Positions 318 to 49,642 of a stretch of 64,000 nucleotides of DNA are shown here, piece by piece. The position numbers and the translations under genes were made by a program. Numbering within the stretch: position 1 is the stretch's first letter; each line of letters opens with the position of its first letter. Location: contig JABJOE010000002.1 in assembly GCA_018664485.1 (NCBI GenBank), forward strand, positions 11,896 through 75,895. The letters are read 5' to 3'. The notes under the pieces were generated by a model. It saw nothing but the letters and a program-made list of their open reading frames with translations, made no database searches and was not told where the DNA came from. The DNA comes from Candidatus Uhrbacteria bacterium (lineage in GTDB: Bacteria; Patescibacteriota; Patescibacteriia; UBA9934).

Positions 318-1394
318 CTAGACGCCTACTCGGAAGTGGCAGACGTCACCATCTTGAACGATGTACTCTTTACCTTCGACACGAAGTTTTCCGGCGTCTC
401 GAGCTTGTGATTCACCACCCAACTCTACAAAATCACTGTATGCAATCACCTCACCTCGTATATATGCTTTTTCAAAATCAGTGTGAATCTTTCCGGCCGC
501 TTGTGGTCCAGTTGATCCAGCTTCTACTGTCCACGCACGAGTCTCCTTCTCACCTGTTGTAAAGAAGCTAATCAAATTCAATGTTTTGTAGCACATGCTG
601 ATCACTCGATCCAAACCAGACTCTTTCCATCCAAGGTCATCTAAGAAAACGCGCATGTCATCTGTGTCTAAAACTGATAACTCTGCCTCAATTTGTGCAG
701 ACACCGGAATAACCATACGGTCCTCACCGAGCGGTGACACCCAATTTGGATCACCGACAGACTCCTCGTTAACATTTACAACGTACAGAATCGGTTTCGT
801 TGTGAGAAGTTGTATATCTTTTAAAACTTCAGTTTCATCTTTTGTGAGATCTGCCTCTCGCGCGAGCGTACCGGCTTCTAGAAGAGATTTATATTTCTTC
901 AAACCGGAAACCTGGTTCATTAAAGTAACATCTTTTGATGCCTGAGCTTTTTTCTCGATTGGATCCAAACGCTTAGTAACTGTTGCAAGGTCTGCGAGCA
1001 TCAATTCCGTCTCAATTACTTCAACATCACGCAATGGGTCCAGAGAGCCATCAACGTGGACAATATCGCTATTCTCAAACGAACGAACGACGTGGGCGAT
1101 CATATCAACCTCACGAATAGTCGCTAAGAACTTATTTCCGAGCCCCTCGCCTTCGCTTGCACCCTTAACTAGGCCTGCAATATCAACAAACTCGATGGCT
1201 GTTGGGATGATTTTTGCTGTTTTTGAGAGGTCAGCAAGAATCTGGAGACGTTCATCTGGAACCTCCACGACACCAACATTTGGCTCGATCGTACAAAACG
1301 GGAAATTGGCACAATCTACCTGCTTTTTGGTTAAAGCGGTAAAAAGGGTCGATTTTCCGACATTTGGCAGTCCTACAATTCCAACTTGAAGCAT
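318..1394 (-). CDS. ychF: ribosome-binding ATPase YchF (Obg-family GTPase)
   Basis: The N-terminal G1 motif is [17 protein letters not shown]. Full-length YchF architecture is present, including the C-terminal TGS-like domain ([15 protein letters not shown]). Confidence 0.9.
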
Positions 1395-1534: not shown

Positions 1535-1563
1535 TTGACAATCTAAGCTTAAAACGGTAAATT
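1535..1563 (+). promoter_or_regulatory. sigma70-like promoter for the 1608 gene (TTGACA-17 nt-TAAATT)
   Basis: TTGACA at 1535-1540 and TAAATT at 1558-1563, about 45 nt upstream of the start codon. Confidence 0.4.
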
Positions 1564-1607
1564 ACCGTCTTCCCTCAAGTCGAGGAGAAGATATCCGAGA
1601 GGAACAC

Positions 1608-2828
1608 ATGACCTACCTTCCAACGATGTTGGCCCTGCTCGGATTCTCTACCGCGCATGCTGCGCGAAACGAGATCCCGGCCGAGCCTACCCCCATCACC
1701 TACACAGTCTTCATTGGCCCGAGCTATGAGCTTCAGGGTCAGCCCACCTTCACCAAGGGCGCCGCAACCTGCGAAGCGCTCGCAAGCCGTTTCGAGTCGG
1801 AAACGAACCCGGCGTCTATCGCCCTGTGCGGTATCGACGCTACGAAAGATGGGATCACTTCTGCACTCTCCGTAACGGTTTCAGCCCTCACGCCACATGA
1901 CAACCTCCTGGTTGTTTATCTGGGTCAGGGTTGGGAGACACAGGGCGGACACTACAAGCTGCTGCCTGCTGACTTCTCCCTTGAAAGTGGGATCGCCGGT
2001 CTCGAAGAATCAAGCATTGATTTCGAGCGTGACTTCAAGTGGACGCTTCGCAATGCATCCAACCAAGGTGGTGAAGTCGTAATCCTGATGGACGCCGTTC
2101 ACTCCGTTCACATTGAGCTCACGCCCTCCGGTGTAGAAGAGGGGGAGCCTTCCGGAATCTTGACGATCGGACCGACTGCAGCCAACTTCAATGATGGCCA
2201 AGATGCAGGGCTGCTGATCGTTTCTGCCACAGGAGGCGAGTACACCATCGATGACGGACTCTTCGGAGGTATCGTTGAAGATTCACTCGCAGGCCAGGCG
2301 GACGAAGACGGAGACGGCAAGCTCACCTTCGGGGAGCTCAAGCTGTTCGTGTTGTCGGAAAGTGCCACAAGGACAAAAGGCCAACAGAAAGGGCTGAGCG
2401 AAGGGCCGTGGATGCTGATGCATGAAGTGCATTTCATGGACCTTCCAGTCCCGAGTGCACCGAAGCGCCAGCGGAGCGGCTTGAATGTCGCGAGTCTGCG
2501 CAAGCCTGCGCTCTACAGCGGCATCGGTCTGTCCGTTGCCGGATGTGGGGTCACGATTGTCGGGCGAGTGATGGCAAACGGTGCCTACGCAGACATGGAC
2601 GCAGGTAACTACAGCGACCGCGACCAATACAACGACCTCGTGGGCACCTACGAAACTGGTGCCGGGCTCTACCCGGTTGGAATCGCAACCTGCACCACGG
2701 GTCTCGTACTCACCGCAACGAGCTTCATTCTCGGAAAAGGGAATGGTGACAAGAAGGTCACCCTCACGCCCGCCGTGACCGGAACCACCGGAGCCAACGC
2801 AACCGTCGGATTCACCGCTCGCTGGTGA
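1608..2828 (+). CDS. secreted EF-hand calcium-binding protein with a possible degenerate caspase-like (C14) core; GC-rich, likely horizontally acquired
   Basis: Signal peptide MTYLPTMLALLGFSTAHA. A canonical EF-hand loop DEDGDGKLTFGE is present. The segments LLVVYLGQGWE and VVILMDAVHS resemble the caspase His and Cys motifs with both catalytic residues replaced. A spot count gives about 58% GC against about 42% in the neighbouring genes. Confidence 0.55.
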   Translation: MTYLPTMLALLGFSTAHAARNEIPAEPTPITYTVFIGPSYELQGQPTFTKGAATCEALASRFESETNPASIALCGIDATKDGITSALSVTVSALTPHDNLLVVYLGQGWETQGGHYKLLPADFSLESGIAGLEESSIDFERDFKWTLRNASNQGGEVVILMDAVHSVHIELTPSGVEEGEPSGILTIGPTAANFNDGQDAGLLIVSATGGEYTIDDGLFGGIVEDSLAGQADEDGDGKLTFGELKLFVLSESATRTKGQQKGLSEGPWMLMHEVHFMDLPVPSAPKRQRSGLNVASLRKPALYSGIGLSVAGCGVTIVGRVMANGAYADMDAGNYSDRDQYNDLVGTYETGAGLYPVGIATCTTGLVLTATSFILGKGNGDKKVTLTPAVTGTTGANATVGFTARW

Positions 2829-2845
2829 CTCCTCGTACAACTTCG

Positions 2846-2875
2846 ATGCCCCGGGTCGCTTGCGACTCGGGGCAT
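2846..2875. terminator. strong GC hairpin between convergent genes (bidirectional terminator)
   Basis: Perfect 8-bp stem atgccccg/cggggcat whose 14-nt loop is itself partly paired; it sits between the 1608..2828 (+) stop and the 2900 (-) stop. Confidence 0.55.
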
Positions 2876-2899
2876 TATTGCACCTATATTTAACTGTCT

Positions 2900-5290
2900 C
2901 TAGTCTTCCGCACCGGCATCATCCACAACCACTTCTTCAACTCCTTCAAGTGGCACAGGAACTTCCTCGGCTGCGGCAATTCCAGCTTCTAGCCTCGCAA
3001 TTTGAGCAAGTACAGTTTCATGACCCGGATTACTTTCCAAAATAGCCAAAAGTGCATCGATAGCTGATTCTTGGTCTCCTAACTCCTCATACACAGCAGC
3101 CAAATACCAATGCGCATTTGCATAGCTTGGTGATAATGCGACAGTACGTTCCAACTCAACTTGTGCAGCGTCGATCTTCCCCTGTCGTAGATAGAGCAGC
3201 CCAAGCTGGAAAGAAACCCCTACATCATAAGGGTTTGCATCGCGCAAAACCACCATCCTATTTATTGCCTCCGACACATTACCGGAACGTTCGTATGCAA
3301 GTGCCAAGTAGTAGTAGGCTATCGCGTAATCGTCTTTAAGAGTAAGTGCATACTCCAAATTTTCAATAGATTCTACCAAGGCCTCGCGACGGCTAGTCTC
3401 GGCCACAGCAGCATACTCCTCATCATCACTTGTTGTGAGTACTGAGAGCTGGTCTGCATGCACAACATATGCACGAGACAACGCAACATAATACTTTGGA
3501 TTATTTGGAGCGAGTTCAATACTCTTTTGATACGCACCAATAGCTAGAACATCTGACCCTGAAATAAGCGGTGCAATCTCTCTATATATATCACCCAACA
3601 ATGTCCAATTGAGTACATTGCTTTCCGAAATATCTACGGCCGTCTGGGCAGCGGTCAGCGATCGTTCAACAGCAGACTGAATTTCACTTGGATGAGCTTC
3701 GTTATCTGACACCACTTCAACGGTCTTTGCCAAATATGCCTGCGCTAAATTCCGTTGATAGACATCGCTCCAACGATTCAACCGCACAGCATTATCTAGC
3801 TGCACAATCACTTCATCAGTTGTAGCTCCTTGCTCACTTAATGACACCGCTTTACCGAAAGCAACCTCCGCCCCATAGCGTGCACCTGACACGAATAGCA
3901 TGGTCAACAGAAGAACGTTCGTTATCACAAAACCGAATGTTGTGAGCAGTGCTGTTCTCGATGATTTCGAGAACGTAAATGTTTTTTCCTTCAAAATAAC
4001 CTGGCTTACCAAAATTGCCGTAAGCAGCCAGAACACAAATGATAACGTCATATTGCTCACATAGAAAAACTGAGCAAAGACACTCAACGTCCAACCACCA
4101 AATGTAACAAATGTCATTTTCCACTCATCATCACTTTGGTTTTGAACCATCAATCGCATTAGCGCCATTGCAGCCAACCAAAGCACCATCAATAAGTATA
4201 GTGCAACCGGTATTACGCCGAGTGTTGAGGTCATTGTTAGAATGTGGCTTGAACTTCGATCAAATTGTTGATCCCAAACAAGTGTTTCGTTGATTTCCGG
4301 CGAATGATACTGAGCGTAATCCATTACGAATGTTCCAGGCCCAGATCCAAATGCCCATGATTCGTTTTGCAATGTTTGCTTTGTTATGTCCCAGCTATAT
4401 TGATGAGAAATGCTCAATTCCGATGCAAATCCATTTGGCACAACGCTCGGAAGGAATAGGAAGAGCAGTGCAATGACAAATAATGCCATTGGGATTACAA
4501 ACCTACCAACTTGTGGGAATTCTTTGATCCGCAAAAGCGCAAACGAGAACAACAGTCCGGTACCTATCAACAACATCGCCCAGAACAGCCAGTAATCAAG
4601 TGCTAGCAAAATAATCGTTGATCCGATAATCGTAATAAGCATTGATAGACGTACGGCCCCACCCACAAAACCATCAGGCAAAATTCGTCTTTTCGCTGTT
4701 CGGTCATCAACTAACCACACGCTCGCAGATAGAACCGTCATTATTGATAGATATGCGCCCATTGCATAGGGAGTCCCGACTACTTCAATTGCACTCCATG
4801 AAAAGAACTGTACGAAAGATAAAACTGTAACAATCGCTGAGCTTAAAAACAGCGCACTCCACACACGTCGCTGAGTTACGGTTTCAGGTAACGTATGCGC
4901 ACCAATTGCCATCAATGCACAAAACGAAATTAATGAAATAACGCTTGTATACTCTTGCCCCGCATGACCAACCCAGCTTGTAAACGGCGCAATAGAGAAA
5001 ACGGCAGACACAACAACACCCACAACGAATGCAATTAGAAGCCACCACCATATGTGGGACCTTACTTCTGCTTTTCGCTCAACTACCATCGCGCCTAACC
5101 ATGCGATCATCGCAAGTGAGCTTCCTAAAATAAGAAGTGTTTGCTTGTTGATCTCGAGTGCATCGAGCGTCCACGGAAGCGCAAGAAGAGGGATCGCAAA
5201 TGTGAGTAAATAAAACAATCCGCGTGCTGCAGATCTGTACCACTGCGCAAGGCGGACCGTTTGTTTTGTTTGAGAGTTCATAGAACTCAT
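2900..5290 (-). CDS. O-antigen ligase (WaaL/RfaL-like) polytopic membrane protein fused to C-terminal TPR repeats
   Basis: About 12 transmembrane helices with the large periplasmic loop typical of Wzy_C/O-antigen-ligase proteins. The C-terminal roughly 300 aa carry repeated TPR-like motifs (AYYYLALAYERSGNVSEAI, AHWYLAAVYEELGDQESAI). Confidence 0.65.
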   Translation of the reverse strand: MSSMNSQTKQTVRLAQWYRSAARGLFYLLTFAIPLLALPWTLDALEINKQTLLILGSSLAMIAWLGAMVVERKAEVRSHIWWWLLIAFVVGVVVSAVFSIAPFTSWVGHAGQEYTSVISLISFCALMAIGAHTLPETVTQRRVWSALFLSSAIVTVLSFVQFFSWSAIEVVGTPYAMGAYLSIMTVLSASVWLVDDRTAKRRILPDGFVGGAVRLSMLITIIGSTIILLALDYWLFWAMLLIGTGLLFSFALLRIKEFPQVGRFVIPMALFVIALLFLFLPSVVPNGFASELSISHQYSWDITKQTLQNESWAFGSGPGTFVMDYAQYHSPEINETLVWDQQFDRSSSHILTMTSTLGVIPVALYLLMVLWLAAMALMRLMVQNQSDDEWKMTFVTFGGWTLSVFAQFFYVSNMTLSFVFWLLTAILVSQVILKEKTFTFSKSSRTALLTTFGFVITNVLLLTMLFVSGARYGAEVAFGKAVSLSEQGATTDEVIVQLDNAVRLNRWSDVYQRNLAQAYLAKTVEVVSDNEAHPSEIQSAVERSLTAAQTAVDISESNVLNWTLLGDIYREIAPLISGSDVLAIGAYQKSIELAPNNPKYYVALSRAYVVHADQLSVLTTSDDEEYAAVAETSRREALVESIENLEYALTLKDDYAIAYYYLALAYERSGNVSEAINRMVVLRDANPYDVGVSFQLGLLYLRQGKIDAAQVELERTVALSPSYANAHWYLAAVYEELGDQESAIDALLAILESNPGHETVLAQIARLEAGIAAAEEVPVPLEGVEEVVVDDAGAED

Positions 5291-5301
5291 TCTATCACAA
5301 T

Positions 5302-8300
5302 CTATACTGTCTCGTCGTCGATATCACCCTCTAACTCGCTACTCGTATCTGCAATTTCTTGCTCATCGTCTACGGTGTCGGCGTCTACATCATCCTGCGC
5401 AACCTCCGTGACTTCATCTTGCACATCATCAACCTGAACGTCGGACTCCTCTTCTTCCTCAGAGACAACTTCTTCTTCGACTACATCTTCTTCGATTAAT
5501 TCCTCTTCAACAGCTTCCTCAACTATCTCTTCTTCCTGCTCGTCCTCAACTATTTCCTCAACCTCTTCCTCGTCCGTTGTCTCATCAATATCTTCTACAG
5601 AATCGACTATCTCTTCTTGCTCATCGTCGTTATCCTCATCCTCGGCCTCGTCTGTATCGACCGCCTCTGCCGCGTCATCACTGTCGTCAACTTCTGAGTC
5701 TGTGCCATCAAGTTGTTCGCTCTGACTGTCTTCCTCATCAATCTCCTCTTCCTCTTCAGGCTGTTCATCGTCAGTTTCCTCAGGCGCGTGATCTTTCAAA
5801 TATGCAATAACCATCCAATCAACAGTTGCAGTTGATCGAACTTCATCAATCGCCGACTCTCGAATGCTAAATCCTTCATTGTCACGATTAACAGCGTAAA
5901 GTGGACCGGTTGGCTGATCAGCCGTTAGGAAAACTCGATATGAAACGCCCTGAGCAATAATGTCGTTAAAGAGTGCGTCTTCAAATTCAAAGTTAACTGC
6001 AGCCGCACCATCTTTCAGATTTGCAGTTCCGGATAACTCAACTGTTTGCTGTCGAGAGAATGTCGCATATGTCTCCACATCTTCATTCTGATATGACCGA
6101 ACAACCTGCACCACGGCACCATTCGTTGTAATAGTTCCGTCTTGCGCGATGGACCATTGCTGACCAACTCCTGTGATTGCAGCGATGTTAATGATCTGAC
6201 CGGTGTTGAAATTAACCGTTCCAGACAGATCTAATGTTGATGCGTTGGCAAGATTTGAGATCAAACTGTCGGCAAGTGGCGCCTCGTCAACCGGACCGCC
6301 GTCATAATAGGAAGGTCGGACAAATACACTCACCGAACCTACCTCTCCTTGGAATGCTTCCATAGCGTAACCGAGAATTGGTCCCGCCTCCGTTGCTTTC
6401 ATTGCGTAACCGTCTTTACTTGAAGTTGTAAGTGGATCTCCGATTGAGATATCTCCATTTTCACCTGACACATAAGTTGGTACACGACCAGAAAGTGCTA
6501 CCGGTACATGGCCCTCAATATTCTCACCCGCCAAGAACCCAGGTTGTGTTGAAATGATACCTGCGATCCGTTGATCATATGTTATTCCGGTCGATCGCAT
6601 TACGTGCTCATCGTCATTTGCAAAGACAACTACTTCTCCCGGAGCAAGCGTCTGCGCTGACGGGAACATCTCTGCAAAGTCATATGATCCAGCACCCCAA
6701 CCAGAAGCATTGGTACGCATGAAGTCTCCACCAGCACCTGACGATCCGTCGTAGTAAATGTATGTATCAGTTTGAAGTGTTCCGCGGTCAGATGGGTACA
6801 GTCGACCAGCGATTGCCAGATCTCCATCGTTATTTACGAAAGCAACTTCATCCTCATCGTCATTTAATATAGAAAGTTTGTAGTCACTACTGTCAGTGAC
6901 ATCTGTAAACATACTCATTCCAATTGTACTATCGGTATCGCCCAACATTGTAAGCGCTGATGAGATAGCTACGTCCCCGTCATCGTCAGAAATGATTCCG
7001 ACACCATGCCATCCTGGCTGAATGAATACCTGGATCAATCCGGTACCTGAGCTATGAGCTTCAAGCGCACGACCAATCGTGTATCCGACTCCTGTAGCTT
7101 TCATTGCAACTCCGTTTACCGATGATAGCGCTACGTAATCACCTATCGAGATTGACCCACCGTCAGTATTTACGTTGACCGGAACCTGTCCTAGAAGAGC
7201 TACAGGTACATACCCGCCGTCATCTTGCCAATTGTCTGTCCAGTTACCAAGTGTATTTGGATTTACAGATAAAACACCAATCACCCCCGAAGGATCATTT
7301 GCAACAACAGCTTCTCCAGATGAGGTTAGAGAAATTACATCACCTCTGACGAAATCTGCGTATGTCCCATCAAATAACTCGGCGTAATCAGACCCTGCAG
7401 ACGCAGCGGTCACCCCTCCAGACCCATCACCCTCGATGGCTCCGATAGGTGTACCTGTAGCATCTCGAAATTCAATATAATCACAGGCAGTTGTCGGAGT
7501 GCTTCCCGATGCTGTAGAACAGGCTTGAATAGAAATTCCCTGCCTATTATCGTTATCGCCCCCATTTACAAATGACGCCATGAATGTACTTGTACTCGCG
7601 TCAACTACAAGTACCTGTGAAGAGCTCGTTCCGGCTCCATTAATTTCAAAGGCGTCCCACACAAATAGATCACCAGCTCCAGTCGCCACGTTTGCGGTAG
7701 TAGGAGTAGAGGTGGACTCGATGTGAGTTGCAGAGCCATAGAAATATCCGGCATAGTTATTCGTTCCTGCACTCGCCTGACCACGTACACCGTAACGAGT
7801 TGTCCCTTCAGTATTTGAACTAAAGTCTCCACCCATAGTTGTAGTCGCTGTTCCAGAACCTGCTGTAACATTTCCAAGCACACCTTTAGCCGTTGTAATC
7901 ACACCATTGAGTGGGATCACCTGACCGTGCACACCAATTACATTTCCAACCGTCGTAGCTGCAGCATCATTCGTTCCCTGCCCTAAAACACCAACAACCC
8001 TGTTGCCTACAGCAGTTCCGTTAGTGGACTGGTTTTCAGATACACCTTTGATCGCATACATCTCTTCGATCTGTCCGGATGATGACGTGTTAACCACCTC
8101 AGACAAAAAACCAATAGGCTCATGTAATTCTCCTCCACCACCTTCACTTACGTCTGACACAAGTCTGACATGTGACCCTACTGCCTGATACGTACCGGCA
8201 CCTCCACTTGCACCAGCAGATACGGTTCCTGAGGTATCAAATGCATACGTAACCCCTGGTGACGCTCCATAATCTGGCGCTGCAAAGTGCTCTATATTAC

Positions 8301-10182
8301 CTCCCTGGAAGCTCCATCTGTCTGCTGTCGTATATGAAATTGAACCCGTATCCCCTGCACTCGAGTACATATTAAAATCTGCGCTAGTACCCGCACCGTC
8401 ACCAAGACGCATCAAATTTGCAGACTCATCAATCGAAAATGCTGATGCCAAAACCGATGCACCTACAGAAAAATCATCAGTTGACGCGGTCGATACAAGT
8501 CCTGACCCTGAATTCAATGTTAAATTCCCACTTCCGCCAGATAGAACTTCCAGTGCTCCAGTAGACGCAAAAGTTGTATCATCGATAGTTAAAGTTCCGC
8601 TTGAATTTATTGTTAGAGCATCTCCTCCATCACCAATAATAGTTGCCTGATCAAAAGTTAGATCACCACCATCGATATCCAGAAGCATGTCGCCTGTAGT
8701 CTGGATCTCACCATCCATATAGTTTGTTGAGAAAGCTCCAGCCGTAAATCCAATATCTGAGAACACCTCTCCGTCAGCCTCAATGCGGAACACGTTATTA
8801 TCAGTAGATCCGAAGTTTGTTTGGATATTAAAAATGTCTGCCGTATCAGTTGTTTCAGTTACATCAATAGACAATGCCATTCCCGCATCATTAGTAAAGT
8901 TCCCACCAACCAGATCCAAAATATTACCGGCAGTTAGCACGTCTGCTGTAATAACGGCAGCACTAGCAGTAGTCGCCTCGGAATCAATATCAAAGGCAGG
9001 TGCCGTCGCTGTATTGCTATCGATCAATAGCACTGACCCTGTTGCCGCAGTATTATTCTGAGTAATAGCAAGCAATGACCCTGTTTCATTTAGAGTTCCA
9101 CCGTTCGCAGTAGTACTCGCTCCTAAAATCGATACAAACGGACCAGATACATTTACAGTGGTAGAACCACCGTCTGACGTTAGATCGCGTACAATATCCA
9201 ACCCCATTCCAGTATATGCAGTTGTACCGGATGTATATGTCGCTGAATGATCTGCGCGTATCAATTTTCCGGAAGTAAGAGCAGAAGACGTCGAACCAAC
9301 ATCGATACCAATACCCGTTGTGAGCGCATCGAGCGACCAGCTCATTGCAGTCGCAGTTGTCAGACTATCTGCCAACAAAGCGATAGCTGGAGCAGTAGTT
9401 CCATTGTATGTGTATTGAATCTGTCTTGAGTCGTTTATATTCAGGAACTCCGTACCTGCATCCTGCAAAATAAAATCTCCAGTACTTTGAAGGTCGACTA
9501 TAAGATCAAGCCCGGCTCCATCTAGTGAAAACTCTAAATCAGTCGCATCAACATTCAAAATGGTGTCGCTACCGTTACTATAAACTTGGTCTAAATTAAA
9601 GTCTGCAGAGCTTAGACCATCAAGAGATTCGGCATTCAGCGCGTATGGAACGGAGTCAACCGCCTTTCTTGGCGTAAGAGTCTCACCTCCAATATAAATC
9701 TGTAAAAACGTAGATGCGTTGTCAGCGAATATCGAATCACCAATCGCAGCCCACGGTGAAGCATCACCAGTGTCACCCATTCGTGCAGTAAACAATCCGT
9801 CAGTAAGCGTTACGGTTCGAGCAGTCGTAGATGCTGGTGTGTCCGAGTCACAAGTAGCTGAAGAGTTTGACCAAAGACAAGTTCCACCCGTAACTGCAGA
9901 GTAAATCTCGAACTTCATGCTAGCGGTTGCATCTGTAACTGGCACACCATTAGAATCAAGAACTCTTCCCTGATATGAAACTGTATTTGGAGGTGAAACA
10001 GCTTGAGCGTCCTGAGGGCCATTAAACGTTACCCCAAACCCCATTGAAATCCCAAGCAACATCACAAGCAATGCTGTGATGCGCGTAAACATCTGTCGTA
10101 ATGATTTCACTCTGTAACTACTCATAAGGTTGGGACTTGGTCCCGCGTGGGCTGATACCCACACGTCTGATTTCTCAGACAT
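5302..10182 (-). CDS. giant (1626 aa) secreted/surface protein, Thr/Ser/Gly-rich beta-rich body with internal repeats and a poly-acidic tail of roughly 190 aa (D/E-rich)
   Basis: N-terminal signal/anchor (alternative start M20 at 10125: MSSYRVKSLRQMFTRITALLVMLLGISMG). Two internal repeats of about 60 aa are present (GQVPVNVNTDGGSISIGDYVAL..AMKATGVGYTIGRALEAH and GRVPTYVSGENGDISIGDPLTT..AMKATEAGPILGYAMEAF). The C-terminus is almost pure D/E (EEEEEIDEEDSQ...DDETV). Confidence 0.7.
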   Translation of the reverse strand: MSEKSDVWVSAHAGPSPNLMSSYRVKSLRQMFTRITALLVMLLGISMGFGVTFNGPQDAQAVSPPNTVSYQGRVLDSNGVPVTDATASMKFEIYSAVTGGTCLWSNSSATCDSDTPASTTARTVTLTDGLFTARMGDTGDASPWAAIGDSIFADNASTFLQIYIGGETLTPRKAVDSVPYALNAESLDGLSSADFNLDQVYSNGSDTILNVDATDLEFSLDGAGLDLIVDLQSTGDFILQDAGTEFLNINDSRQIQYTYNGTTAPAIALLADSLTTATAMSWSLDALTTGIGIDVGSTSSALTSGKLIRADHSATYTSGTTAYTGMGLDIVRDLTSDGGSTTVNVSGPFVSILGASTTANGGTLNETGSLLAITQNNTAATGSVLLIDSNTATAPAFDIDSEATTASAAVITADVLTAGNILDLVGGNFTNDAGMALSIDVTETTDTADIFNIQTNFGSTDNNVFRIEADGEVFSDIGFTAGAFSTNYMDGEIQTTGDMLLDIDGGDLTFDQATIIGDGGDALTINSSGTLTIDDTTFASTGALEVLSGGSGNLTLNSGSGLVSTASTDDFSVGASVLASAFSIDESANLMRLGDGAGTSADFNMYSSAGDTGSISYTTADRWSFQGGNIEHFAAPDYGASPGVTYAFDTSGTVSAGASGGAGTYQAVGSHVRLVSDVSEGGGGELHEPIGFLSEVVNTSSSGQIEEMYAIKGVSENQSTNGTAVGNRVVGVLGQGTNDAAATTVGNVIGVHGQVIPLNGVITTAKGVLGNVTAGSGTATTTMGGDFSSNTEGTTRYGVRGQASAGTNNYAGYFYGSATHIESTSTPTTANVATGAGDLFVWDAFEINGAGTSSSQVLVVDASTSTFMASFVNGGDNDNRQGISIQACSTASGSTPTTACDYIEFRDATGTPIGAIEGDGSGGVTAASAGSDYAELFDGTYADFVRGDVISLTSSGEAVVANDPSGVIGVLSVNPNTLGNWTDNWQDDGGYVPVALLGQVPVNVNTDGGSISIGDYVALSSVNGVAMKATGVGYTIGRALEAHSSGTGLIQVFIQPGWHGVGIISDDDGDVAISSALTMLGDTDSTIGMSMFTDVTDSSDYKLSILNDDEDEVAFVNNDGDLAIAGRLYPSDRGTLQTDTYIYYDGSSGAGGDFMRTNASGWGAGSYDFAEMFPSAQTLAPGEVVVFANDDEHVMRSTGITYDQRIAGIISTQPGFLAGENIEGHVPVALSGRVPTYVSGENGDISIGDPLTTSSKDGYAMKATEAGPILGYAMEAFQGEVGSVSVFVRPSYYDGGPVDEAPLADSLISNLANASTLDLSGTVNFNTGQIINIAAITGVGQQWSIAQDGTITTNGAVVQVVRSYQNEDVETYATFSRQQTVELSGTANLKDGAAAVNFEFEDALFNDIIAQGVSYRVFLTADQPTGPLYAVNRDNEGFSIRESAIDEVRSTATVDWMVIAYLKDHAPEETDDEQPEEEEEIDEEDSQSEQLDGTDSEVDDSDDAAEAVDTDEAEDEDNDDEQEEIVDSVEDIDETTDEEEVEEIVEDEQEEEIVEEAVEEELIEEDVVEEEVVSEEEEESDVQVDDVQDEVTEVAQDDVDADTVDDEQEIADTSSELEGDIDDETV

Positions 10183-10193
10183 GTGCTCACCAA

Positions 10194-12851
10194 CTATTCC
10201 TCGTCTTTCTTTTCGTTCTCCATATGTACGTCAACAGAAATAAGTTCAGGTTCTTTTTTCTCCGAATAATCAATTGGTCGAACCTCTGTTTTTTCAAATC
10301 CAGGCTTCTCGAACGTTACATAATACGTATTTGGTCCCGCCATAAAGGCGTAATGACCCTTTCCGTCTGTAAGTGTTGATTCGATTAGCTTGTTATATTT
10401 TGGCTCAAATAGACGAACCACAGTATTTGGAAGTGCTGCCTTGTCTGTCATTGTTCGAACGATTCCCCAACCTTTCTGCTTTTTGATGCGATGAGTCAGA
10501 ATACCCGTTGCCGCATACATGAATGCGTGTATGAAAACGATTACAAAACTCAGAACAGTCAGCTGAATAAATGCCACAACGATCGCAACTACCAGCCCTG
10601 CTATTGCAAGAACATGCTGGAAGATTCGAAGGAAGCGCATCATCACCAATCGTTTTGGCGTATGTAGTTTTTCAGCTTGATCAGGGTCCACTGGAATATT
10701 GGGCGTAAGAAGTACCTGATTTGCATCTACCTCAATCACACCACCCGTATATACATCAAGATAATTTCCATCTTGACTCTTTCCAGCCATGTAATCACTT
10801 GGGAATACGAATCCGGCTTTCGCCACCTTCATCGAATACCGACCCTCTTTCACCTTAAAGAAGAACCTACCCTCTTTGTCAGTTACTCGTGTCTGAACGA
10901 TCTTCCCCTGCTCACTATACAAACGAACGATAGCAAGGTCGACGGGCAATTTTGTAATACCGTTGTAGACTAGTCCGAATTTTTGTCGTCTTCGTCGTGC
11001 GAAGAACAGAATCGGCGCTGTAAATAGATAGCGCAGATAGTTCAACAAGTTAAATGATGTGGCAAGAACTCCAACGCTTGTCGCTGCGACAACGACGGTT
11101 ACCGGTGACGCCACTTCTGCGGCCACCTGAACCTCTGGGATTTCTCTTACCTCATTTACAACATCACTTATATCCGACACAAATGCTTGTGCTACATCAA
11201 CTGCCGTACCAACCACAGCAACGACTGCTATGCTCGATTCGTCAGACTCCGTATCCACAACCGGAGCCTCTATAGGCTCGAGTTCAATACTCGGATTCAA
11301 AATTCCATTTGAAACGAAAATTTGTTTCTCTGCATCGATGTATCCGGATTTTCCAGCCGTCACAAGATAAGAACCGTTTGGCACATACCAAGCGAATGCT
11401 CCATCTTGCAAGACTGTAATGGGATTTGACTGATCGTAGTCAGTTGCATCCCACTGATGTAACGAGTCTCCGCCTTCATAAACTATGACAATTGCGCCGT
11501 CAACCGGCGTACGCTCGTCGTCCAAAAGCTGGTAAACAACCCCTAAACTCTGAACGTTCCAATCGTAATAGTCAGTTATCACTTCGTCGTCACCATATGT
11601 AACAACAACCGTCGCTACAGTATCTTCAGACGCAGTTTCAACGACGCCTGCGTAGACATCGTCATCCGTTTGTGACAATTCGTATTGATTATCTCCAATA
11701 ACTAGGATAACCGTCGTGACATCATCTGAGTCGGCAACCTCAACAGATACAACTACCTCTGTGTCTGGTAATACATCAATATCTTCATCCTCCCCGAGGA
11801 AAACACTACCGTCATTACTGCTTACGGTTGTGTCGAAAGATCTTGAGTTGTCTGATCCCGATCCTGAATCACCAGAGTCATCATCGTCTGTCGATGAATC
11901 ATCTTCTGTGCCAGGGTCTTCGTCATCAGTATCGTCATCTGGATCATCGGAGTCTCCTCCCGATCCGCCGCCGCCTCCTCCGCCATCACCTGAATCGCCT
12001 CCGGAGTCTCCTCCGGAATCTCCGTCTCCGTCTCCACCACCGCCGTCGTCACCAGAATCTCCTGGGTCATCTTCTGAATCATCACCTGGGTCATCATCGG
12101 TGTCATCTCCAGGTTCCTCTTCATCATCACCTGGATCTTCTTCGGTGTCGTCACCGGGATCATCTTCATCGTCACCCGGATCATCATCGTCACCATCTCC
12201 GTCATCACCGGAATCTCCGCCATCGTCCCCTCCGCCGCCGCCTCCTCCACCTCCGCCTCCACCTCCACCTCCTGATTCTGGAATGGTAGCTGAAACCGTT
12301 CCGTCATCATTTGATGCGATTGGCAAAACTATCGTTCCGCCCATTCCTGAGGTACCGGCAACTGTTAGAAAGTATGAAGCTGCGTTTGATGGGTTTGTGA
12401 TCTGAAACGCTCCCGTTCCAGAGGATGTTGCGTTCGTTCCTATTTCCACAATAACTTCACTCGCACTTGCAACCGCTCCGCCGTCACCGGCGCATATTGT
12501 AAAAGTTACAAGGCCTGAAGATATTGTCACAGATACTTCCTCTGATCCTGTGCAGTTTGCCGCAGTTGTCAGGTCAACCCCATCGTCTGATATGTCGATG
12601 GAGTCTTCTACTATAGAAGACGTTGTGAAACTCGATGGAAAATCGATTGTAAAGGTCTCCCCTTCGTCGATCGCGTCTGAGACGGTCATGACGATCTTGT
12701 GATTGGATGCTTGTGAAACCTCAATTGATGACGGCTGGTCATACGCTGACGTAAGCGTTGTTGCCGCCAATGTTAAAGACGCCCAAGGCCCTAGAAGGGC
12801 GCTCAAGGTTATAAGGACGATCCAGAAAATGGCACGAAATGTGCGAATCAT
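10194..12851 (-). CDS. large surface protein with poly-Gly and acidic D/G/P-rich low-complexity linkers, C-terminal TM helices and two carboxypeptidase-regulatory-like domains
   Basis: The ORF runs to 12926; the probable start is M26 (MIRTFRAIFWIVLITLSALLGPWASLTLA, signal-like). It carries a 15-residue Gly run and a DDPGDDxxxDPGDD repeat. Two C-terminal segments match the CarbopepD_reg pattern (TDKEGRFFFKVKEGRYSMKVAKAGF; TDGKGHYAFMAGPNTYYVTFEKPGF), following transmembrane helices. Confidence 0.65.
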   Translation of the reverse strand: MIRTFRAIFWIVLITLSALLGPWASLTLAATTLTSAYDQPSSIEVSQASNHKIVMTVSDAIDEGETFTIDFPSSFTTSSIVEDSIDISDDGVDLTTAANCTGSEEVSVTISSGLVTFTICAGDGGAVASASEVIVEIGTNATSSGTGAFQITNPSNAASYFLTVAGTSGMGGTIVLPIASNDDGTVSATIPESGGGGGGGGGGGGGGGDDGGDSGDDGDGDDDDPGDDEDDPGDDTEEDPGDDEEEPGDDTDDDPGDDSEDDPGDSGDDGGGGDGDGDSGGDSGGDSGDGGGGGGGSGGDSDDPDDDTDDEDPGTEDDSSTDDDDSGDSGSGSDNSRSFDTTVSSNDGSVFLGEDEDIDVLPDTEVVVSVEVADSDDVTTVILVIGDNQYELSQTDDDVYAGVVETASEDTVATVVVTYGDDEVITDYYDWNVQSLGVVYQLLDDERTPVDGAIVIVYEGGDSLHQWDATDYDQSNPITVLQDGAFAWYVPNGSYLVTAGKSGYIDAEKQIFVSNGILNPSIELEPIEAPVVDTESDESSIAVVAVVGTAVDVAQAFVSDISDVVNEVREIPEVQVAAEVASPVTVVVAATSVGVLATSFNLLNYLRYLFTAPILFFARRRRQKFGLVYNGITKLPVDLAIVRLYSEQGKIVQTRVTDKEGRFFFKVKEGRYSMKVAKAGFVFPSDYMAGKSQDGNYLDVYTGGVIEVDANQVLLTPNIPVDPDQAEKLHTPKRLVMMRFLRIFQHVLAIAGLVVAIVVAFIQLTVLSFVIVFIHAFMYAATGILTHRIKKQKGWGIVRTMTDKAALPNTVVRLFEPKYNKLIESTLTDGKGHYAFMAGPNTYYVTFEKPGFEKTEVRPIDYSEKKEPELISVDVHMENEKKDEE

Positions 12852-12891
12852 AGTTTGCGAACAACTCCAGATATTTATGAAGCTGCTCAGA

Positions 12892-13770
12892 TTACGGACC
12901 GCGGGAAAATCTATGCATCCAAGCAAGGAGACCTAGAATAACGAGCGCGAAGAGTGCGCCTTTCCACGGAAAGATGATGATGTGTTGACGAGCATGAAAC
13001 ACTTCTCCGTCTTCCCATGGCTGAACTTCAAGGTCGACAGTGAAAAGACCAATAGCAAACGGTTGCTTTGTGTCTTCTTCCTGTTCTCCCCAATATGTTG
13101 TGAAGGTGCGTGTCTGCCCGCTCACAGCTCGTGAGCCCTCCACATTGACGCTATTTAAAGCGACTTCCCGGCCAAATAGGCTGGTAATACGCATCGATCC
13201 TTGTGGGATCACGACGCGTTCCCCCTCATTGCGAACACTTAGATGACCTATCACCGGCAAAGACCAACCGCCAGACGATTCAATTGTGGCATCAAGCCAA
13301 TAAACTGATTCATAGACGGGTCCAACAGTAATAAATCCTAGCGAAACAATCGCTGTCTGTACGCCAATACCCTGCGATGCCTGGTTTTGACGAGTAACCT
13401 TTACTCCGAATGTGATGACTTGAGGCTCCAAATCATCAGGTGGAGTGAAAGCTAGGTCGATCGTTCCCTGTGTGTTTGCAGCAAGCGAGAGCACGCCATC
13501 ATCAATAGAAATCCATGATGCAATTTCCTCATCCAATTTGGAGAAAGAAATTTCCTCGTACGTCTCACCAATATGTACTTGTATAATCTCGAGTTCGTAT
13601 GTCGCCTCGTCATTTTGATCATTCACCAAAATAAGTTGAGCGTCACCGGTTTCTCCTGCTGTAATTGTGACGTCGAAACTTTCCGGCCACAGCTCTTCTG
13701 CTAAACCAATATTGGGGGGAAGTAAAAGCAGTAGAGCGAAGAGGCATATGTACTTAGTAATTCCCGACAT
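12892..13770 (-). CDS. secreted protein with N-terminal signal peptide and C-terminal TM anchor (hypothetical surface protein)
   Basis: ORF to 13803; the likely start is M12 (MSGITKYICLFALLLLLPPNIGLA). C-terminal hydrophobic anchor ALFALVILGLLAWMHRFSRGP. Co-oriented with the surface operon, overlapping it by a few nucleotides. Confidence 0.55.
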   Translation of the reverse strand: MSGITKYICLFALLLLLPPNIGLAEELWPESFDVTITAGETGDAQLILVNDQNDEATYELEIIQVHIGETYEEISFSKLDEEIASWISIDDGVLSLAANTQGTIDLAFTPPDDLEPQVITFGVKVTRQNQASQGIGVQTAIVSLGFITVGPVYESVYWLDATIESSGGWSLPVIGHLSVRNEGERVVIPQGSMRITSLFGREVALNSVNVEGSRAVSGQTRTFTTYWGEQEEDTKQPFAIGLFTVDLEVQPWEDGEVFHARQHIIIFPWKGALFALVILGLLAWMHRFSRGP

Positions 13771-14674
13771 ACAGCACGGTAAGTACGTGGGAATAACTTC
13801 CATCCGTTTGAGAGCTGGTCATTCCAGCTTTAAGCGTAATGAAGTTTCTACTTGCAAAGATACTCGCCGACTCTGTTGCGATTGCTGCAAGTGTGGTTGT
13901 GATCGCCGTGTCTTGCGTGTCAAAAGTTGATGACGTAATGGATGAATCCGATGCTCGCGCACCGTATTCAGTTGATCCTGCAGTCACAGCTCCGTCACTT
14001 ACGTCTGTAATTGTGTTTGATCCATCTATTAGATCTGTATCTTCGCTGATGTAGATATCAAACCCGGAATCAACATCGCCTGATGCCTCCCAAGCAACAA
14101 TTGATGTCGCTACTGAGGAACCTGTAAGGGTTCCGAGGGAAAGTGATGAGGCATTTAGCCGATAAACTACGTCATTGCTACCGTCTATAGTTAATGAGTC
14201 ACCTGAAAGCGAGTCAATAATCAAGTCGGAGCCTGACACTGATGTGATCTTTCCTATAGCTGTTGATTGGCTTGCGCCCTCATCTTGTACAATCGCTACC
14301 ATCTGATCAGCACTAAATCCACTTGTGCTTGCAATGGTTACAGTTGTGCCAGACAGAGCACTTGAACCTACTTGGCTACTTCGATCTTGCAGATAGAGAT
14401 TAAAATCTACGACCCGATCATAGATACCACCTCTATGGCCTGCATCAAAGGAATAACTCGTTGATGTCGAATTACCTTCTGCCACACCACCAATTGAATC
14501 GCGGAGTTGATATGACGCTGATGAGCTGGAATCGCTCCCGCCAGCATTAATCACATCCCAATCAATTCGATAATTGGTTGATGACATTTGGGCATTTGCC
14601 ACCTGAGTTATAAGGAGCAATACAAATGCACATAAAGTAAGGGGGAATGCAGTGCGCACATTCATACACAGCAA
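13754..14674 (-). CDS. secreted Ser/Thr-rich beta-strand protein (first gene of the surface-protein operon)
   Basis: Signal peptide MLCMNVRTAFPLTLCAFVLLLITQVANA. The mature N-terminus is SSTNYRIDWDVINAGGSDSSSSASYQLRDSIGG, followed by an S/T/D-rich body. No known domain was recognised. Confidence 0.55.
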   Translation of the reverse strand: MLCMNVRTAFPLTLCAFVLLLITQVANAQMSSTNYRIDWDVINAGGSDSSSSASYQLRDSIGGVAEGNSTSTSYSFDAGHRGGIYDRVVDFNLYLQDRSSQVGSSALSGTTVTIASTSGFSADQMVAIVQDEGASQSTAIGKITSVSGSDLIIDSLSGDSLTIDGSNDVVYRLNASSLSLGTLTGSSVATSIVAWEASGDVDSGFDIYISEDTDLIDGSNTITDVSDGAVTAGSTEYGARASDSSITSSTFDTQDTAITTTLAAIATESASIFASRNFITLKAGMTSSQTDGSYSHVLTVLYVGNY

Positions 14675-23030: not shown

Positions 23031-23225
23031 ATATATTCAAGTTCACCCTGGCGATAACAGCGAGCCAGATAGTGGTTTCTTTGAGTATATTATCACGAAA
23101 GGTCCGATGCACTATGTAAGCCATAGCCAGATGCAGAAAGCCCCCACCAGCCGAAGCCGATGGGGAACTTGAGAGTCACGACCCCGAGAGGGTCGGACTG
23201 TTGTCGGGACGAGGCGAGGCCTCGT

Positions 23226-24182
23226 CTATGCGGCGGCGCGCTGGTTGCTGAAGGCCGTACCGATCGGGGTCTCCAGAGCCAACTCGGTGGCCGGGACGTC
23301 GAAGCGGACGGACTCGTCCTTGTCCACGATGGTGCACAGGTCGAGCTTGACCAGGCCACGACGACCGAGGGTCTGCATGACGATGCCCTTGGTCGGACCA
23401 AGGAGGGTCAGCTCGATGCCGGTGTTGGTCACCTTGAAGGCCCAGCCGTAGTTGCCGATGGACACGGTGGCCATCACGTCGGTGTCGCTGTAGACGCGGG
23501 TTGCGATCGGGGTCTTGTTGTCGTCGTAGCCCTTGAGCTTGGAGATGTCGATCTTGCCGTACCGAGCGCCGTCGAGGAACTTCGAGATCTTGAAGTCGTC
23601 GGAGTGCTTGGCGATGGCGAGCTTCATGTCCTTGCTCGGGATCACGGTCATGACGGCGCTCTTGCCATCGACCACGTCGAGGTGACCGGACACGGACAGG
23701 GCCACGGTGGTCTTGCCGATGTTCACCTTCTCGAAGCTGAACTCGCCGGTCTGCGTACCGATGACGGTGGACCAGGAGGAGCCGGGGTCGACGATCTTGG
23801 TGATGCCGGTGTCGTCGTAGTCGAGGGCCTGGCTGAAGTCGAGACGCTGCGCGGTGAAGTGCAGGACGTCGTTCCAGCCGTCGTCGTTGAGCTCGGTGTC
23901 GATGTCGCCGTTGGCGCTCAGAGCCGTCGCGAAGATCATGCCGTTGGTGTTCACGCCGCGAACGATGCGGTTGGTGTTGTCGGGCAGATCACTCACGTTG
24001 GAGCTGACGTAGAAGGTGCGGTCGGCCTGGTCGTAGCTGACGTGGCTGTTGGAGCCGGCGTCGAACAGGACGTCGTCGCTCATGTCGTCGTCGCTGTCCA
24101 TGTTCACGACCTTGTAGGGCGCGGTGGGCATGGTGGCGAAGAGAGCGAGGAAGGTCAGGATCTGGATCTTGTTGGTATGCAA
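23226..24182 (-). CDS. secreted hypothetical protein encoded in a GC-rich (about 63%) island
   Basis: Probable TTG start giving the signal peptide MHTNKIQILTFLALFATMPTAPYK (ORF track extends to 24284). Composition is beta-rich; the long antisense ORF 23160..24389 is a GC artefact. A spot GC count gives about 63% against about 42% genome-typical. Confidence 0.5.
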   Translation of the reverse strand: MHTNKIQILTFLALFATMPTAPYKVVNMDSDDDMSDDVLFDAGSNSHVSYDQADRTFYVSSNVSDLPDNTNRIVRGVNTNGMIFATALSANGDIDTELNDDGWNDVLHFTAQRLDFSQALDYDDTGITKIVDPGSSWSTVIGTQTGEFSFEKVNIGKTTVALSVSGHLDVVDGKSAVMTVIPSKDMKLAIAKHSDDFKISKFLDGARYGKIDISKLKGYDDNKTPIATRVYSDTDVMATVSIGNYGWAFKVTNTGIELTLLGPTKGIVMQTLGRRGLVKLDLCTIVDKDESVRFDVPATELALETPIGTAFSNQRAAA

Positions 24183-24429
24183 GGTGCACTCTTTTTGAAG
24201 TGGACTCGTAAGTCCGGGTTGTTGCTCTATCCAAGGTTGGGGTCGAGACGGCGCAATTCTGCCACAGCTAGCGAATCCTGTCAAGGGATTTGTGCAGGTA
24301 TCGGAAAAGTGGCCATAAAAGTAAAAGAAATATTTATATCTAATCTAAGCCAATATATAAGTCCACAGGCACCGGGCGTTACACAATGATGTGTCGTATA
24401 ATGCTAATATAACGTTTCTATACCTATAT

Positions 24430-40650: not shown

Positions 40651-40968
40651 TCAGCCTCGTGCCGGGGCAGGTGTCTTCTCCAAGAAGGTGGCGACACCGG
40701 GCCTCGTCTTGGCAGCTTCGGTAAGGACGTAAACGAGTCGCTTCAAGTGCGTCTCACGCCCCTGAATCTCTCCAAGGTTCGCACTCACCCGTGCGACAAC
40801 CAGGCTGTCCGAGCACCCGGGGTCCTTGAGCATCAGCTCGATGCGAGCAACTTCAACGGCGACTGGATCACGCCCCTTGGTCACACGCATGTAGGTGTCT
40901 TGGAGTTCGCCGATCACATAGTGTTGCAATATGGCGCCAATGTTGCGGAAAAAATCAAACCTCATCAC
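40651..40968 (-). CDS. hypothetical 105-aa protein, paralog A of a tandem GC-rich cassette
   Basis: About 60% GC. Homologous to the 41113..41430 product, with shared residues such as QH.V.G...DT, DP.C.D.L, LG and RPG.A.F....PA.AR; no known domain. Confidence 0.55.
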   Translation of the reverse strand: MMRFDFFRNIGAILQHYVIGELQDTYMRVTKGRDPVAVEVARIELMLKDPGCSDSLVVARVSANLGEIQGRETHLKRLVYVLTEAAKTRPGVATFLEKTPAPARG

Positions 40969-41112: not shown

Positions 41113-41430
41113 TTAGTCTCGAGCGAGAGCCGGTTCTTCGGCCACGAATACTGCGAGGCCAGGTCGATCTTGGGCAGCGCTATGAAGCACGGCAACGAGC
41201 TGAAGAATATCCGGTTCAGAACGCAGAAAGTCTCCAAGGATGTTGTTGACCTTCATAATAATCAGCCAGTCCGGACACTCCGGGTCGCCGACCATCGCCC
41301 TGATGCGGTTCAGCGAAGCCGCCAACGGATGAACACCGTATATAAGCCGGTCCCACGTATCACTGACGGCACCTAGGACAGAGTGTTGAAACACAGCGCT
41401 CACACTTGTACGAATCAAAGCAGAGTTCAT
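41113..41430 (-). CDS. hypothetical 105-aa protein, paralog B of a tandem GC-rich cassette
   Basis: Same length and about 35% amino-acid identity to paralog A; its own promoter-like repeat lies upstream and the GC hairpin downstream. Confidence 0.55.
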   Translation of the reverse strand: MNSALIRTSVSAVFQHSVLGAVSDTWDRLIYGVHPLAASLNRIRAMVGDPECPDWLIIMKVNNILGDFLRSEPDILQLVAVLHSAAQDRPGLAVFVAEEPALARD

Positions 41431-49273: not shown

Positions 49274-49304
49274 ACACCCACGGCGAGAGAATCGTCGTGG
49301 GTGT
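49274..49304. repeat. hairpin H2 (acacccacg-GCGAGAGAATCGT-cgtgggtgt)
   Basis: Perfect 9-bp outer stem; same inner element; downstream (minus strand) of the 103-aa gene. Confidence 0.5.
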
Positions 49305-49330
49305 TTAGGTTGGCGCGGCGCGACAACGGC

Positions 49331-49642
49331 TCAAGGGTCCGTCTCAGAAGTGTCGGGCGAGAGACTTGCCGCGACGACCAGCCCCACATAGAACCCAATC
49401 ACACAAAAGATGACAGACAAGAACACTACAGGGGGAGCGTCCCTACCAAGAATCAGGAGGGCGGCGATCCAGGACAGGAAGGAAATGCCAGCCGCTGCAA
49501 GAATGGGGAAGTCAACGAATGGTTTGCTCCGATCACTGGCATCCAAATAGACGGAAGTAGCAACCAGGAACATGGTGATCACGGGAGCGACACCAAGCGA
49601 CAGAAATTTAATAGCTAGAGAAAAAAGCTCTAAAGTTTCCAC
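49331..49642 (-). CDS. small integral membrane protein (3 TM), hypothetical
   Basis: Three hydrophobic helices; GC-rich local composition. Confidence 0.4.
   Translation of the reverse strand: METLELFSLAIKFLSLGVAPVITMFLVATSVYLDASDRSKPFVDFPILAAAGISFLSWIAALLILGRDAPPVVFLSVIFCVIGFYVGLVVAASLSPDTSETDP

Follow-up and report, generated by a model that had tools for sequence, protein, structure and literature searches.

A predicted caspase-fold protein with substituted catalytic residues, encoded by a vertically inherited, GC-rich gene of Candidatus Uhrbacteria

Gene content and features of the locus

We analysed a 64,000-nucleotide stretch of DNA from a Candidatus Uhrbacteria bacterium (contig JABJOE010000002.1; hereafter the window), with a focus on HON52_00140, a GC-rich gene that lies between ychF and the gene for a TPR-containing protein. 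The open reading frame (ORF) starts at the first available start codon past an upstream stop, and its product is identical to the NCBI entry 'hypothetical protein HON52_00140 [Candidatus Uhrbacteria bacterium]'. As set out below, profile and model comparisons place the predicted product in the caspase fold family, alignments indicate that both of its catalytic residues have been lost, and the gene is vertically inherited within Candidatus Uhrbacteria, together with a conserved, gene-specific codon anomaly. Coordinates of the gene, its predicted signals and protein features, and the neighbouring and comparable genes are given in Table 1.

Judged by its flanking signals, HON52_00140 bears the hallmarks of a strongly expressed unit, namely a -35 box, a leader hairpin, a ribosome-binding site and a terminator. 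The promoter-like site agrees with the consensus at 10 of 12 positions in a consensus scan, and TTGACA and the bases around it are kept in the alignment of four closer orthologous loci. The leader stem-loop (-13.7 kcal/mol, z = -2.3) has an identical stem in loci L001, L004 and L005, which represents sequence conservation without covariation, and may serve as an mRNA stabiliser. A preliminary description of this locus had reported an unusually strong 8-bp GC hairpin closing the gene. The hairpin exists, although its strength was understated, as the stem comprises 14 bp and folds at -26.6 kcal/mol (z = -5.6), which none of 200 shuffled sequences equalled. It was missed by a consensus terminator scan because its U-tract is weak. 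In each of the five orthologous loci, a GC-rich hairpin lies 3' of the stop codon. The sequences differ between loci, and the hairpin in L008 has a full U-tract.

Table 1. Positions of the gene, its predicted elements and other genes discussed in the text (window coordinates unless another locus is named; GC3, GC content at third codon positions; pLDDT, predicted local distance difference test).
Feature	Position	Strand	Basis or remarks
ychF	318-1394	-	Neighbour of HON52_00140
Promoter-like site: -35 TTGACA (1535-1540, perfect), 17-nt spacer, -10 TAAATT (1558-1563)	1535..1563	+	Putative
5'-leader stem-loop (CUUCCCUC...GAGGAGAAG)	1568..1591	+	Immediately 5' of the ribosome-binding site
Ribosome-binding site GAGAGGA	1597..1603	+	5 nt before the HON52_00140 start; orthologs read GGAGGA (alignment)
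HON52_00140, coding sequence (CDS), 406 aa	1608..2828	+	GC 0.583, GC3 0.658
Signal peptide, residues 1-18 (MTYLPTMLALLGFSTAHA / ARNE), AxA cleavage motif	1608..1661	+	Predicted from N-terminal sequence pattern
Caspase-hemoglobinase-fold domain, residues 29-278 (p20-like and p10-like parts)	1692..2441	+	Profiles, AlphaFold, Foldseek
T54, S1-pocket Asp position (TbMCA2 Asp95), lost	1767..1769	+	Alignment
Q107, catalytic His position (GHG to GQG)	1926..1928	+	Alignment; His in 38/38 His/Cys-bearing relatives
DAVHS, residues 162-166; D162 kept, V164 in catalytic Cys position	2091..2105	+	Alignment
EF-hand-type loop DEDGDGKLTFGEL, residues 232-244	2301..2339	+	Exact PROSITE PS00018 match; putative Ca2+ binding
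C-terminal helical hairpin: helix 294-332, tip GNYSD, helix 338-375	2487..2732	+	Model pLDDT 86-96
C-terminal beta-hairpin tail, terminal aromatic W406	2760..2825	+	pLDDT about 55, low confidence
Terminator hairpin, 14-bp stem	2845..2876	+	Between the convergent HON52_00140 and TPR genes
796-aa TPR-containing protein	2900-5290	-	Pfam: TPR families only; sequence reads as integral membrane protein
HON52_00205, second orphan gene, 318 aa	23226-24182	-	GC3 0.887; hydrophobic N-terminus
hyp126, orphan, 126 aa	L001 1268-1648	+	GC3 0.906; perfect TTGACA -35 box; AAGGAGGA ribosome-binding site

Similarity to caspase-fold proteins

A word-indexed search of 5.8 billion proteins returned HON52_00140 itself and a single homolog (46% identity). 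When a profile of these two sequences was used in an exhaustive HMMER search, 406 proteins were recovered (E <= 1e-3), mostly over residues 25-265, and Pfam Peptidase_C14 was detected in 44 of the 61 top profile matches (best E = 1.3e-38). In the reverse direction, a hidden Markov model (HMM) built only from 38 relatives that bear the catalytic His and Cys matched the query with 91 bits over residues 26-265 (E = 3e-30 as a single comparison), and scored 60-109 bits on the four closest relatives of HON52_00140. This link is indirect: a Pfam scan gave no Peptidase_C14 (PF00656) match to HON52_00140 even at E <= 10, NCBIfam returned nothing, and the orthologs P0158 and P0011 had no PF00656 match at E <= 1. 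Hence, of the Pfam models named in the preliminary description, Peptidase_C14 connects to the protein through related sequences but not directly, and EF-hand_1 stays below its threshold (see below).

Among solved structures, the family profile matched metacaspase MCA2 of Trypanosoma brucei best (TbMCA2, PDB 4AFR; 1.8e-20), with which HON52_00140 shares the fold and the Asp of the DxCH motif (Asp211, corresponding to D162). Yeast Mca1, AtMC4, AtMC9, GSU0716 (Geobacter) and MALT1 were matched as well, and the match to metacaspases ended at about residue 212. A phmmer search against PDB sequences yielded a marginal match to CMF5 (9e5c, E = 0.013) and weak matches to EF-hand proteins.

Structure prediction gave a consistent picture. 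An AlphaFold run on the two-sequence alignment was not usable (pLDDT 36), whereas the model from a 73-sequence alignment, which is rich in real C14 proteins, had a mean pLDDT of 85, with values above 90 in the domain core. This model contains a complete caspase fold up to residue 278, aligned to whole caspases, and all of its best Foldseek matches in the PDB were MALT1, metacaspases and caspases-3, -7 and -9 (probability 1.00; template modelling scores of 0.55-0.66 relative to the target). The top structural matches, MALT1 paracaspase and the animal caspases (E = 5e-8 to 1e-4), share 10-16% identity with HON52_00140 and are unlike it in being active, cytosolic and without an EF-hand loop or membrane module. 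The caspase-like core that had first been suspected from two short motifs is thus supported by HMM and by structural comparison.

Loss of catalytic and pocket residues

The family consensus F.GHG / DACHSG is replaced in HON52_00140 by GQG (residues 106-108) and DAVHS, respectively. This double substitution had been proposed in the preliminary description, and it stands when compared with the 38 His/Cys-bearing relatives. At the His position, orthologs carry S/A/S/L/V/Y/L/P, and only P0010 and P0011 have kept His among 11 orthologs. At the Cys position, where all 38 reference relatives have Cys, the 11 Uhrbacteria-type orthologs read V/I/V/I/L/V/L/N/S/S/V, and none has Cys. The S1 pocket is altered too. 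Based on profile alignment and the residue list of PMC6426788, T54 maps to TbMCA2 Asp95, a column occupied by Asp in all 38 His/Cys-bearing relatives and by T/A/T/A/V in the close clade. Of the two acidic S1 residues, HON52_00140 therefore has D162 and lacks the Asp95 equivalent; D162 (TbMCA2 Asp211) is the sole invariant column in both the 61- and the 73-sequence alignments.

On the basis of these alignments, both catalytic residues of HON52_00140 have been lost, and the loss of Cys in all orthologs, of His in most of them and of one S1 acidic residue indicates that the predicted protein is no cysteine protease. As a prokaryotic p20 homolog with substituted catalytic residues, it falls under the definition of a pseudo-orthocaspase (PMC6426788). 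A further trait of pseudo-orthocaspases in that sense is the lack of a recognisable metacaspase p10 domain, on which the profile match (ending at about residue 212) and the model (a complete fold up to residue 278) differ.

EF-hand-type loop, predicted export signal and C-terminal module

The canonical EF-hand loop reported earlier was likewise found (as an exact match to PS00018), and it is not an added module. The same pattern was matched in 78 of 152 retrieved relatives. In the model, the loop is flanked by helices at 218-230 and 241-255, and only one such motif is present, whereas EF-hands normally come in pairs. Pfam EF-hand_1 (15.7 bits, threshold 25.4) and EF-hand_5 (14.1 bits, threshold 25.9) both scored below threshold, while calmodulin loops were matched by the family profile at about 1e-6. 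The weak EF-hand match of bona fide C14 relatives falls within the Pfam C14 envelope, hence the loop is integral to this bacterial C14 subfamily and not a fused module. Ca2+ binding by this loop is plausible. The Ca2+ site of metacaspases, for comparison, is built by Asp residues of the p20 part, and not by an EF-hand loop.

In 11 of 11 orthologs examined, the N-terminus is hydrophobic and leads into an AxA-type site, past which the mature protein would begin with acidic residues, so that the signal peptide noted previously is borne out as a conserved signal-peptide-like N-terminus. A clade-specific Cys55/Cys74 pair (both residues in 8 sequences, neither in 61 of 73) would fit a disulfide bond within an exported domain. 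At the other end of the protein, the C-terminal helical hairpin is kept across orthologs. Its helices (38-39 residues each) are rich in small residues and have moderately hydrophobic cores at about 301-323 and 351-375 (Kyte-Doolittle 19-residue peaks of 1.56 and 1.72), its tip is polar and conserved (GNYSDRDxYNDLVG; Y-N-x-L/V), and a basic cluster, PKRQRSG...RKP, precedes it. The hairpin is probably a membrane anchor. The last residue is W or F in all orthologs, and a profile search with the C-terminal module found no match outside the family.

Inheritance and codon usage

Six Uhrbacteria genomes share the gene order ychF, HON52_00140 or its ortholog, TPR membrane protein and giant protein. 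The homolog P0002 occupies this slot, as do P0003, P0155, P0007 and P0158, some of which are only about 23% identical to the query. Pairwise identities and distances among the target proteins track those of their neighbours (Spearman 0.81 for YchF and 0.80 for the TPR protein), with the target evolving much faster (46% identity to the homolog, compared with 85% for YchF and 72% for the TPR protein). No integrase, tRNA or repeat was found at the borders of HON52_00140, the nearest tRNA being located at 15.9 kb. A scan of viral contigs detected no relative, PHROGs gave no match, and the only locus recovered by a scan of genome contigs matches L001 with 100% identity.

The raised GC content described earlier was confirmed (0.583 for the gene versus 0.468 in the window; z = 4.07 relative to 1221-nt windows not overlapping it), and only one other place within the 64 kb, at about 22.5-24.3 kb, is equally GC-rich. 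Codon and tetranucleotide comparisons also identified HON52_00140 as an outlier, with a GC3 of 0.658 versus a median of 0.446 (sd 0.073) across 53 window ORFs, and a tetranucleotide distance (z = 2.6) equalled in 3% of other windows. This GC excess is limited to the CDS, with 39% GC in the upstream intergenic region and 30% past the hairpin.

The anomaly recurs across the six orthologous genomes, where the target has a GC content of 0.58-0.68 versus 0.40-0.52 in neighbouring genes, and GC3 values of 0.66, 0.91, 0.81, 0.88, 0.72 and 0.74 versus 0.30-0.59. By arithmetic from these values, the shift in GC3 is about 1.1-2.1 logits per genome. As background GC3 has moved by about 0.25 among the six genomes, synonymous sites had time to equilibrate, and because the excess persists in every genome despite this time, a leftover donor signature does not explain it. 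Horizontal acquisition from a high-GC donor, as put forward in the preliminary description, is thus unsupported, given the same slot in six genomes, the congruent distances and the high GC3 in each of them. HON52_00140 has instead been inherited vertically in Candidatus Uhrbacteria, along with its conserved gene-specific codon anomaly.

The shift in codon usage is specific to C. At third positions, the share of C increases from about 0.20-0.24 to 0.41-0.69, while that of G (about 0.25-0.34) is almost unmoved, and GGG and CGG are still rare and GGT and CGT are retained. Such a C-specific and strand-asymmetric shift speaks against simple GC pressure and against biased gene conversion. On an index of C/(C+T) in two-fold pyrimidine codons, HON52_00140 ranked second of 53 window ORFs, followed by the genes for PNPase, H+-pyrophosphatase, S15 and trigger factor. 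Codon shifts of the ribosomal/EF-P set and of GC-rich genes were correlated in L001 (r = 0.74), and the same comparison in the window gave a partial r of 0.47 once the effect of GC-ending codons was taken out.

Proposed role of HON52_00140 and alternative explanations

Taking these results together, we consider it probable that HON52_00140 encodes a lineage-specific, exported and catalytically dead pseudo-orthocaspase, which is vertically inherited and has a gene-specific bias toward C-ending codons. A Sec signal peptide would send the complete caspase-fold domain outside the cell, where the C-terminal helical hairpin would probably hold it at the membrane. The domain would be without catalysis, but would keep its fold, D162 and a single canonical EF-hand loop, and it would most likely serve as a binding or scaffold protein of the cell surface that is abundant, non-catalytic and stabilised by Ca2+. 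An exposed protein is in keeping with the fast evolution seen in a fixed genomic slot. An active, gene-specific force probably holds the bias toward C-ending codons in every genome, and selection related to expression or mRNA stability is our best guess as to its nature, because of the -35 box, leader hairpin, ribosome-binding site and terminator. S-layer-type surface-protein genes similarly combine a strong promoter, leader hairpin, strong ribosome-binding site and terminator with codon bias and fast evolution. The likeness of HON52_00140 to these genes would be an analogy in expression architecture only, with no relation in sequence or fold.

Several points weigh against this interpretation. 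Membership in C14 rests on transitive homology and on a model dominated by C14 proteins, because there is no direct match in Pfam or NCBIfam. We infer abundance and high expression from sequence signals, as we do export and membrane anchoring, and the basic flank before the first helix of the hairpin and its acidic tip run against the positive-inside rule if the topology is as proposed. Highly expressed proteins are usually slow-evolving, whereas the HON52_00140 protein evolves fast. Moreover, a codon adaptation index (CAI) derived from the window's genes for S15, trigger factor, PNPase and H+-pyrophosphatase leaves HON52_00140 outside the top 8, and HON52_00140 avoids A-ending codons, which the highly expressed reference genes do not. 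Ordinary expression-linked codon bias was rejected as a full explanation on these last two grounds, and accounts for at most part of the codon shift.

One alternative, which we regard as unlikely, is an ancient transfer into the Uhrbacteria ancestor, with the GC3 excess upheld by gene conversion biased toward GC, at a hot spot of recombination in a gene under diversifying selection. In its favour are the fast evolution of the protein in a fixed slot, a CAI that does not place HON52_00140 high, and its avoidance of A-ending codons, in which it differs from the highly expressed reference genes. A second orphan gene in the window, HON52_00205, behaves alike, as its GC3 is high both here and in a relative (0.975), and its codon shifts are correlated with those of HON52_00140 (r = 0.85), indicating a shared codon regime. 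Gene conversion is strand-symmetric, however, and at four-fold sites it would be expected to favour G as much as C, whereas C far exceeds G in codons for Gly, Ala, Thr, Arg and Ser, with GGG and CGG rare and GGT and CGT persisting. To our knowledge, a change in GC3 from 0.52 to 0.975, as seen for the second orphan, also far exceeds the effects reported for gene conversion in bacteria.

It is very unlikely that HON52_00140 is still an enzyme that acts via residues other than the His/Cys dyad. The invariant D162, the well-conserved fold and pocket region, and the retention of H165, beside the former Cys, in 31 of 35 dyad-deficient relatives would all be compatible with such an activity, but the alignment offers no conserved residue that could replace the nucleophile (V, I or L at position 164, S or A at position 166, and a hypervariable His position), and one S1 Asp is gone as well. 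A recent single-gene transfer from a high-GC donor, in which the GC excess would be un-ameliorated donor composition, is highly improbable. While it would account for the compositional outlier status of the gene (in GC, GC3 and tetranucleotides), for codon usage broadly like that of high-GC bacteria and for the near-orphan status in the 5.8-billion-protein search, and while a similar GC3-rich gene, hyp126 of L001, is absent from the slot in its nearest relative, it is at odds with positional orthologs in six genomes and their congruence with flanking genes, and with GC3 values raised in all six against backgrounds that range from 0.30 to 0.59. It is further contradicted by a GC excess that stops at the CDS boundaries next to a promoter region shared with relatives, by the lack of an integrase, tRNA or repeat at the borders, and by the lack of relatives in viral contigs. 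Finally, a caspase-like part of an anti-phage defence or cell-death system (e.g., a gasdermin-activating or CHAT-type protease) is barely credible, as the direct matches to the PADLOC 'caspase' model that would suggest it (E = 0.003 to 1.8e-5) are weak and partial, the dyad is absent, a signal peptide is predicted, no partner gene was found in the conserved neighbourhood, which consists of ychF and genes for the cell envelope, and no second C14 ORF was found within the 64-kb window.

Comparison with known caspase homologs

Pseudo-orthocaspases described to date are about 90% alphaproteobacterial or cyanobacterial, typically have Tyr/Ser or Tyr/Asn instead of His/Cys, and retain the two acidic residues of the S1 pocket (Klemencic, Asplund-Samuelsson, Dolinar & Funk 2019, PMC6426788). 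An example is SyOC of Synechocystis (PMC7889975). HON52_00140 resembles these proteins in being a p20-type prokaryotic homolog with substituted catalytic residue(s), a predicted intact fold, a presumed non-proteolytic nature and conservation within its lineage. Unlike them, the Uhrbacteria clade belongs to the Candidate Phyla Radiation (CPR), is invisible to the Pfam C14 model, has lost the Asp95 equivalent, and combines an aliphatic Cys position and a hypervariable His position with a predicted Sec signal peptide and a private C-terminal helical-hairpin module. The clade is thus more degenerate than published pseudo-orthocaspases, because the latter retain both acidic pocket residues.

The metacaspases, which include the best profile match among solved structures, differ in being active Cys proteases that depend on Ca2+ and possess a recognised p10 region, whereas HON52_00140 lacks the dyad and is predicted to be exported. 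Dead caspase folds kept as regulators or membrane-associated factors include cFLIP, an animal pseudo-caspase, and the T. brucei pseudopeptidase MCA4. Both work with active paralogs, whereas no active C14 paralog is encoded in the window around HON52_00140.

Within the collection of papers searched, none linked Uhrbacteria with caspases. The results here extend pseudo-orthocaspases to the CPR, in a form unseen by Pfam-based censuses, and point to a new architecture, consisting of a predicted signal peptide, a dead caspase fold with an integral EF-hand loop, a helical hairpin and an aromatic C-terminus. Given a probable surface location in an organism thought to be contact-dependent, HON52_00140 is a candidate interaction protein. 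The gene is also a clear exception to the common rule by which a single-gene island of high GC content is read as horizontal transfer, as conservation of the anomaly across genomes of drifting composition implies gene-specific maintenance.

We also observed many C14-like proteins of about 360-400 aa that lack the Cys and keep the His (e.g., P0031 and P0036). The contexts of P0031 and P0036 (L012 and L013) are unrelated to the Uhrbacteria slot, for example beside relA/spoT, gmk and yicC. Hence, Cys-less caspase-fold proteins occur widely, also outside the taxa on which the literature has focused.

Other GC3-rich genes

HON52_00205, which lies in the second GC-rich place of the window, had no match in Pfam, PADLOC or PHROGs. 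Its only homolog (L010 6001-6948; 51% identity) occupies the same slot between an xerC-like gene and polA, the PolA proteins being 67% identical, and its GC3 of 0.975 compares with about 0.52 in neighbouring genes. Past the stop codon of HON52_00205, three successive GC-rich hairpins were identified (23130-23230, minus strand; -51.3 kcal/mol over 101 nt, z = -5.5). An antisense ORF at 23160-24389 (plus strand) was rejected as a gene, since its GC1/GC2/GC3 of 0.83/0.43/0.52 is the shadow of a GC3-rich sense frame.

The third gene of this kind, hyp126, has no signal peptide and is absent between sodA and efp in L004, the closest relative of L001. Its absence there means that at least one GC3-rich gene of this type is accessory. 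All three genes (HON52_00140, HON52_00205 and hyp126) have a perfect TTGACA -35 box, and the first two stay in fixed chromosomal slots across deep divergence. Nearly all of their third positions are C, with GC3 reaching 0.975 in genomes that have a GC3 of 0.3-0.55. It is possible, if doubtful at present, that Uhrbacteria have a class of fast-evolving, lineage-restricted genes under a separate and actively maintained C-ending codon regime, the mechanism of which would be gene-specific, whether selective or mutational, and distinct from both horizontal transfer and ordinary expression-linked bias. These mRNAs might, for instance, resist a ribonuclease that targets A/U, or a particular tRNA state might be what their translation is tuned to. 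If the codon regime were a general property of such a class, it would offer a simple sequence signature for a special set of genes in uncultured CPR bacteria.

Neighbouring genes and additional observations

Beside HON52_00140, a run of genes on the minus strand (2900-14674) is conserved and cell-envelope-like in appearance. In addition to the TPR-containing protein, it encodes a protein of 1626 aa that lacks a Pfam match and has a very acidic C-terminus rich in Glu and Asp, and a protein of 910 aa that contains CarboxypepD_reg and alpha-2-macroglobulin MG3-like domains. Two further ORFs in the run are about 300 aa long, and the N-terminus of at least one of them resembles a signal peptide. 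Within this run, the region at 11.0-12.0 kb of the window is also a tetranucleotide outlier.

Elsewhere in the window, two ORFs of 105 aa each on the minus strand (40651-40968 and 41113-41430) look paralogous by eye. The first has a GC content of 0.575, a GC3 of 0.67 and no Pfam match, and the second has values of 0.541 and 0.55, respectively. Between 49000 and 52000, GC content is moderately high (0.50-0.515 per kb), and several short ORFs located there (49301-49618, 49572-49886 and 49843-50229) are of uncertain status.

Lastly, locus L014 (CAYFME010000013.1), from a GTDB representative that bears the label 'uncultured Gammaproteobacteria bacterium', agrees with L001 at 100% identity over 5602 nt. 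As L001 is of the Uhrbacteria type, this identity suggests that the label or the binning of that metagenome-assembled genome is probably wrong.

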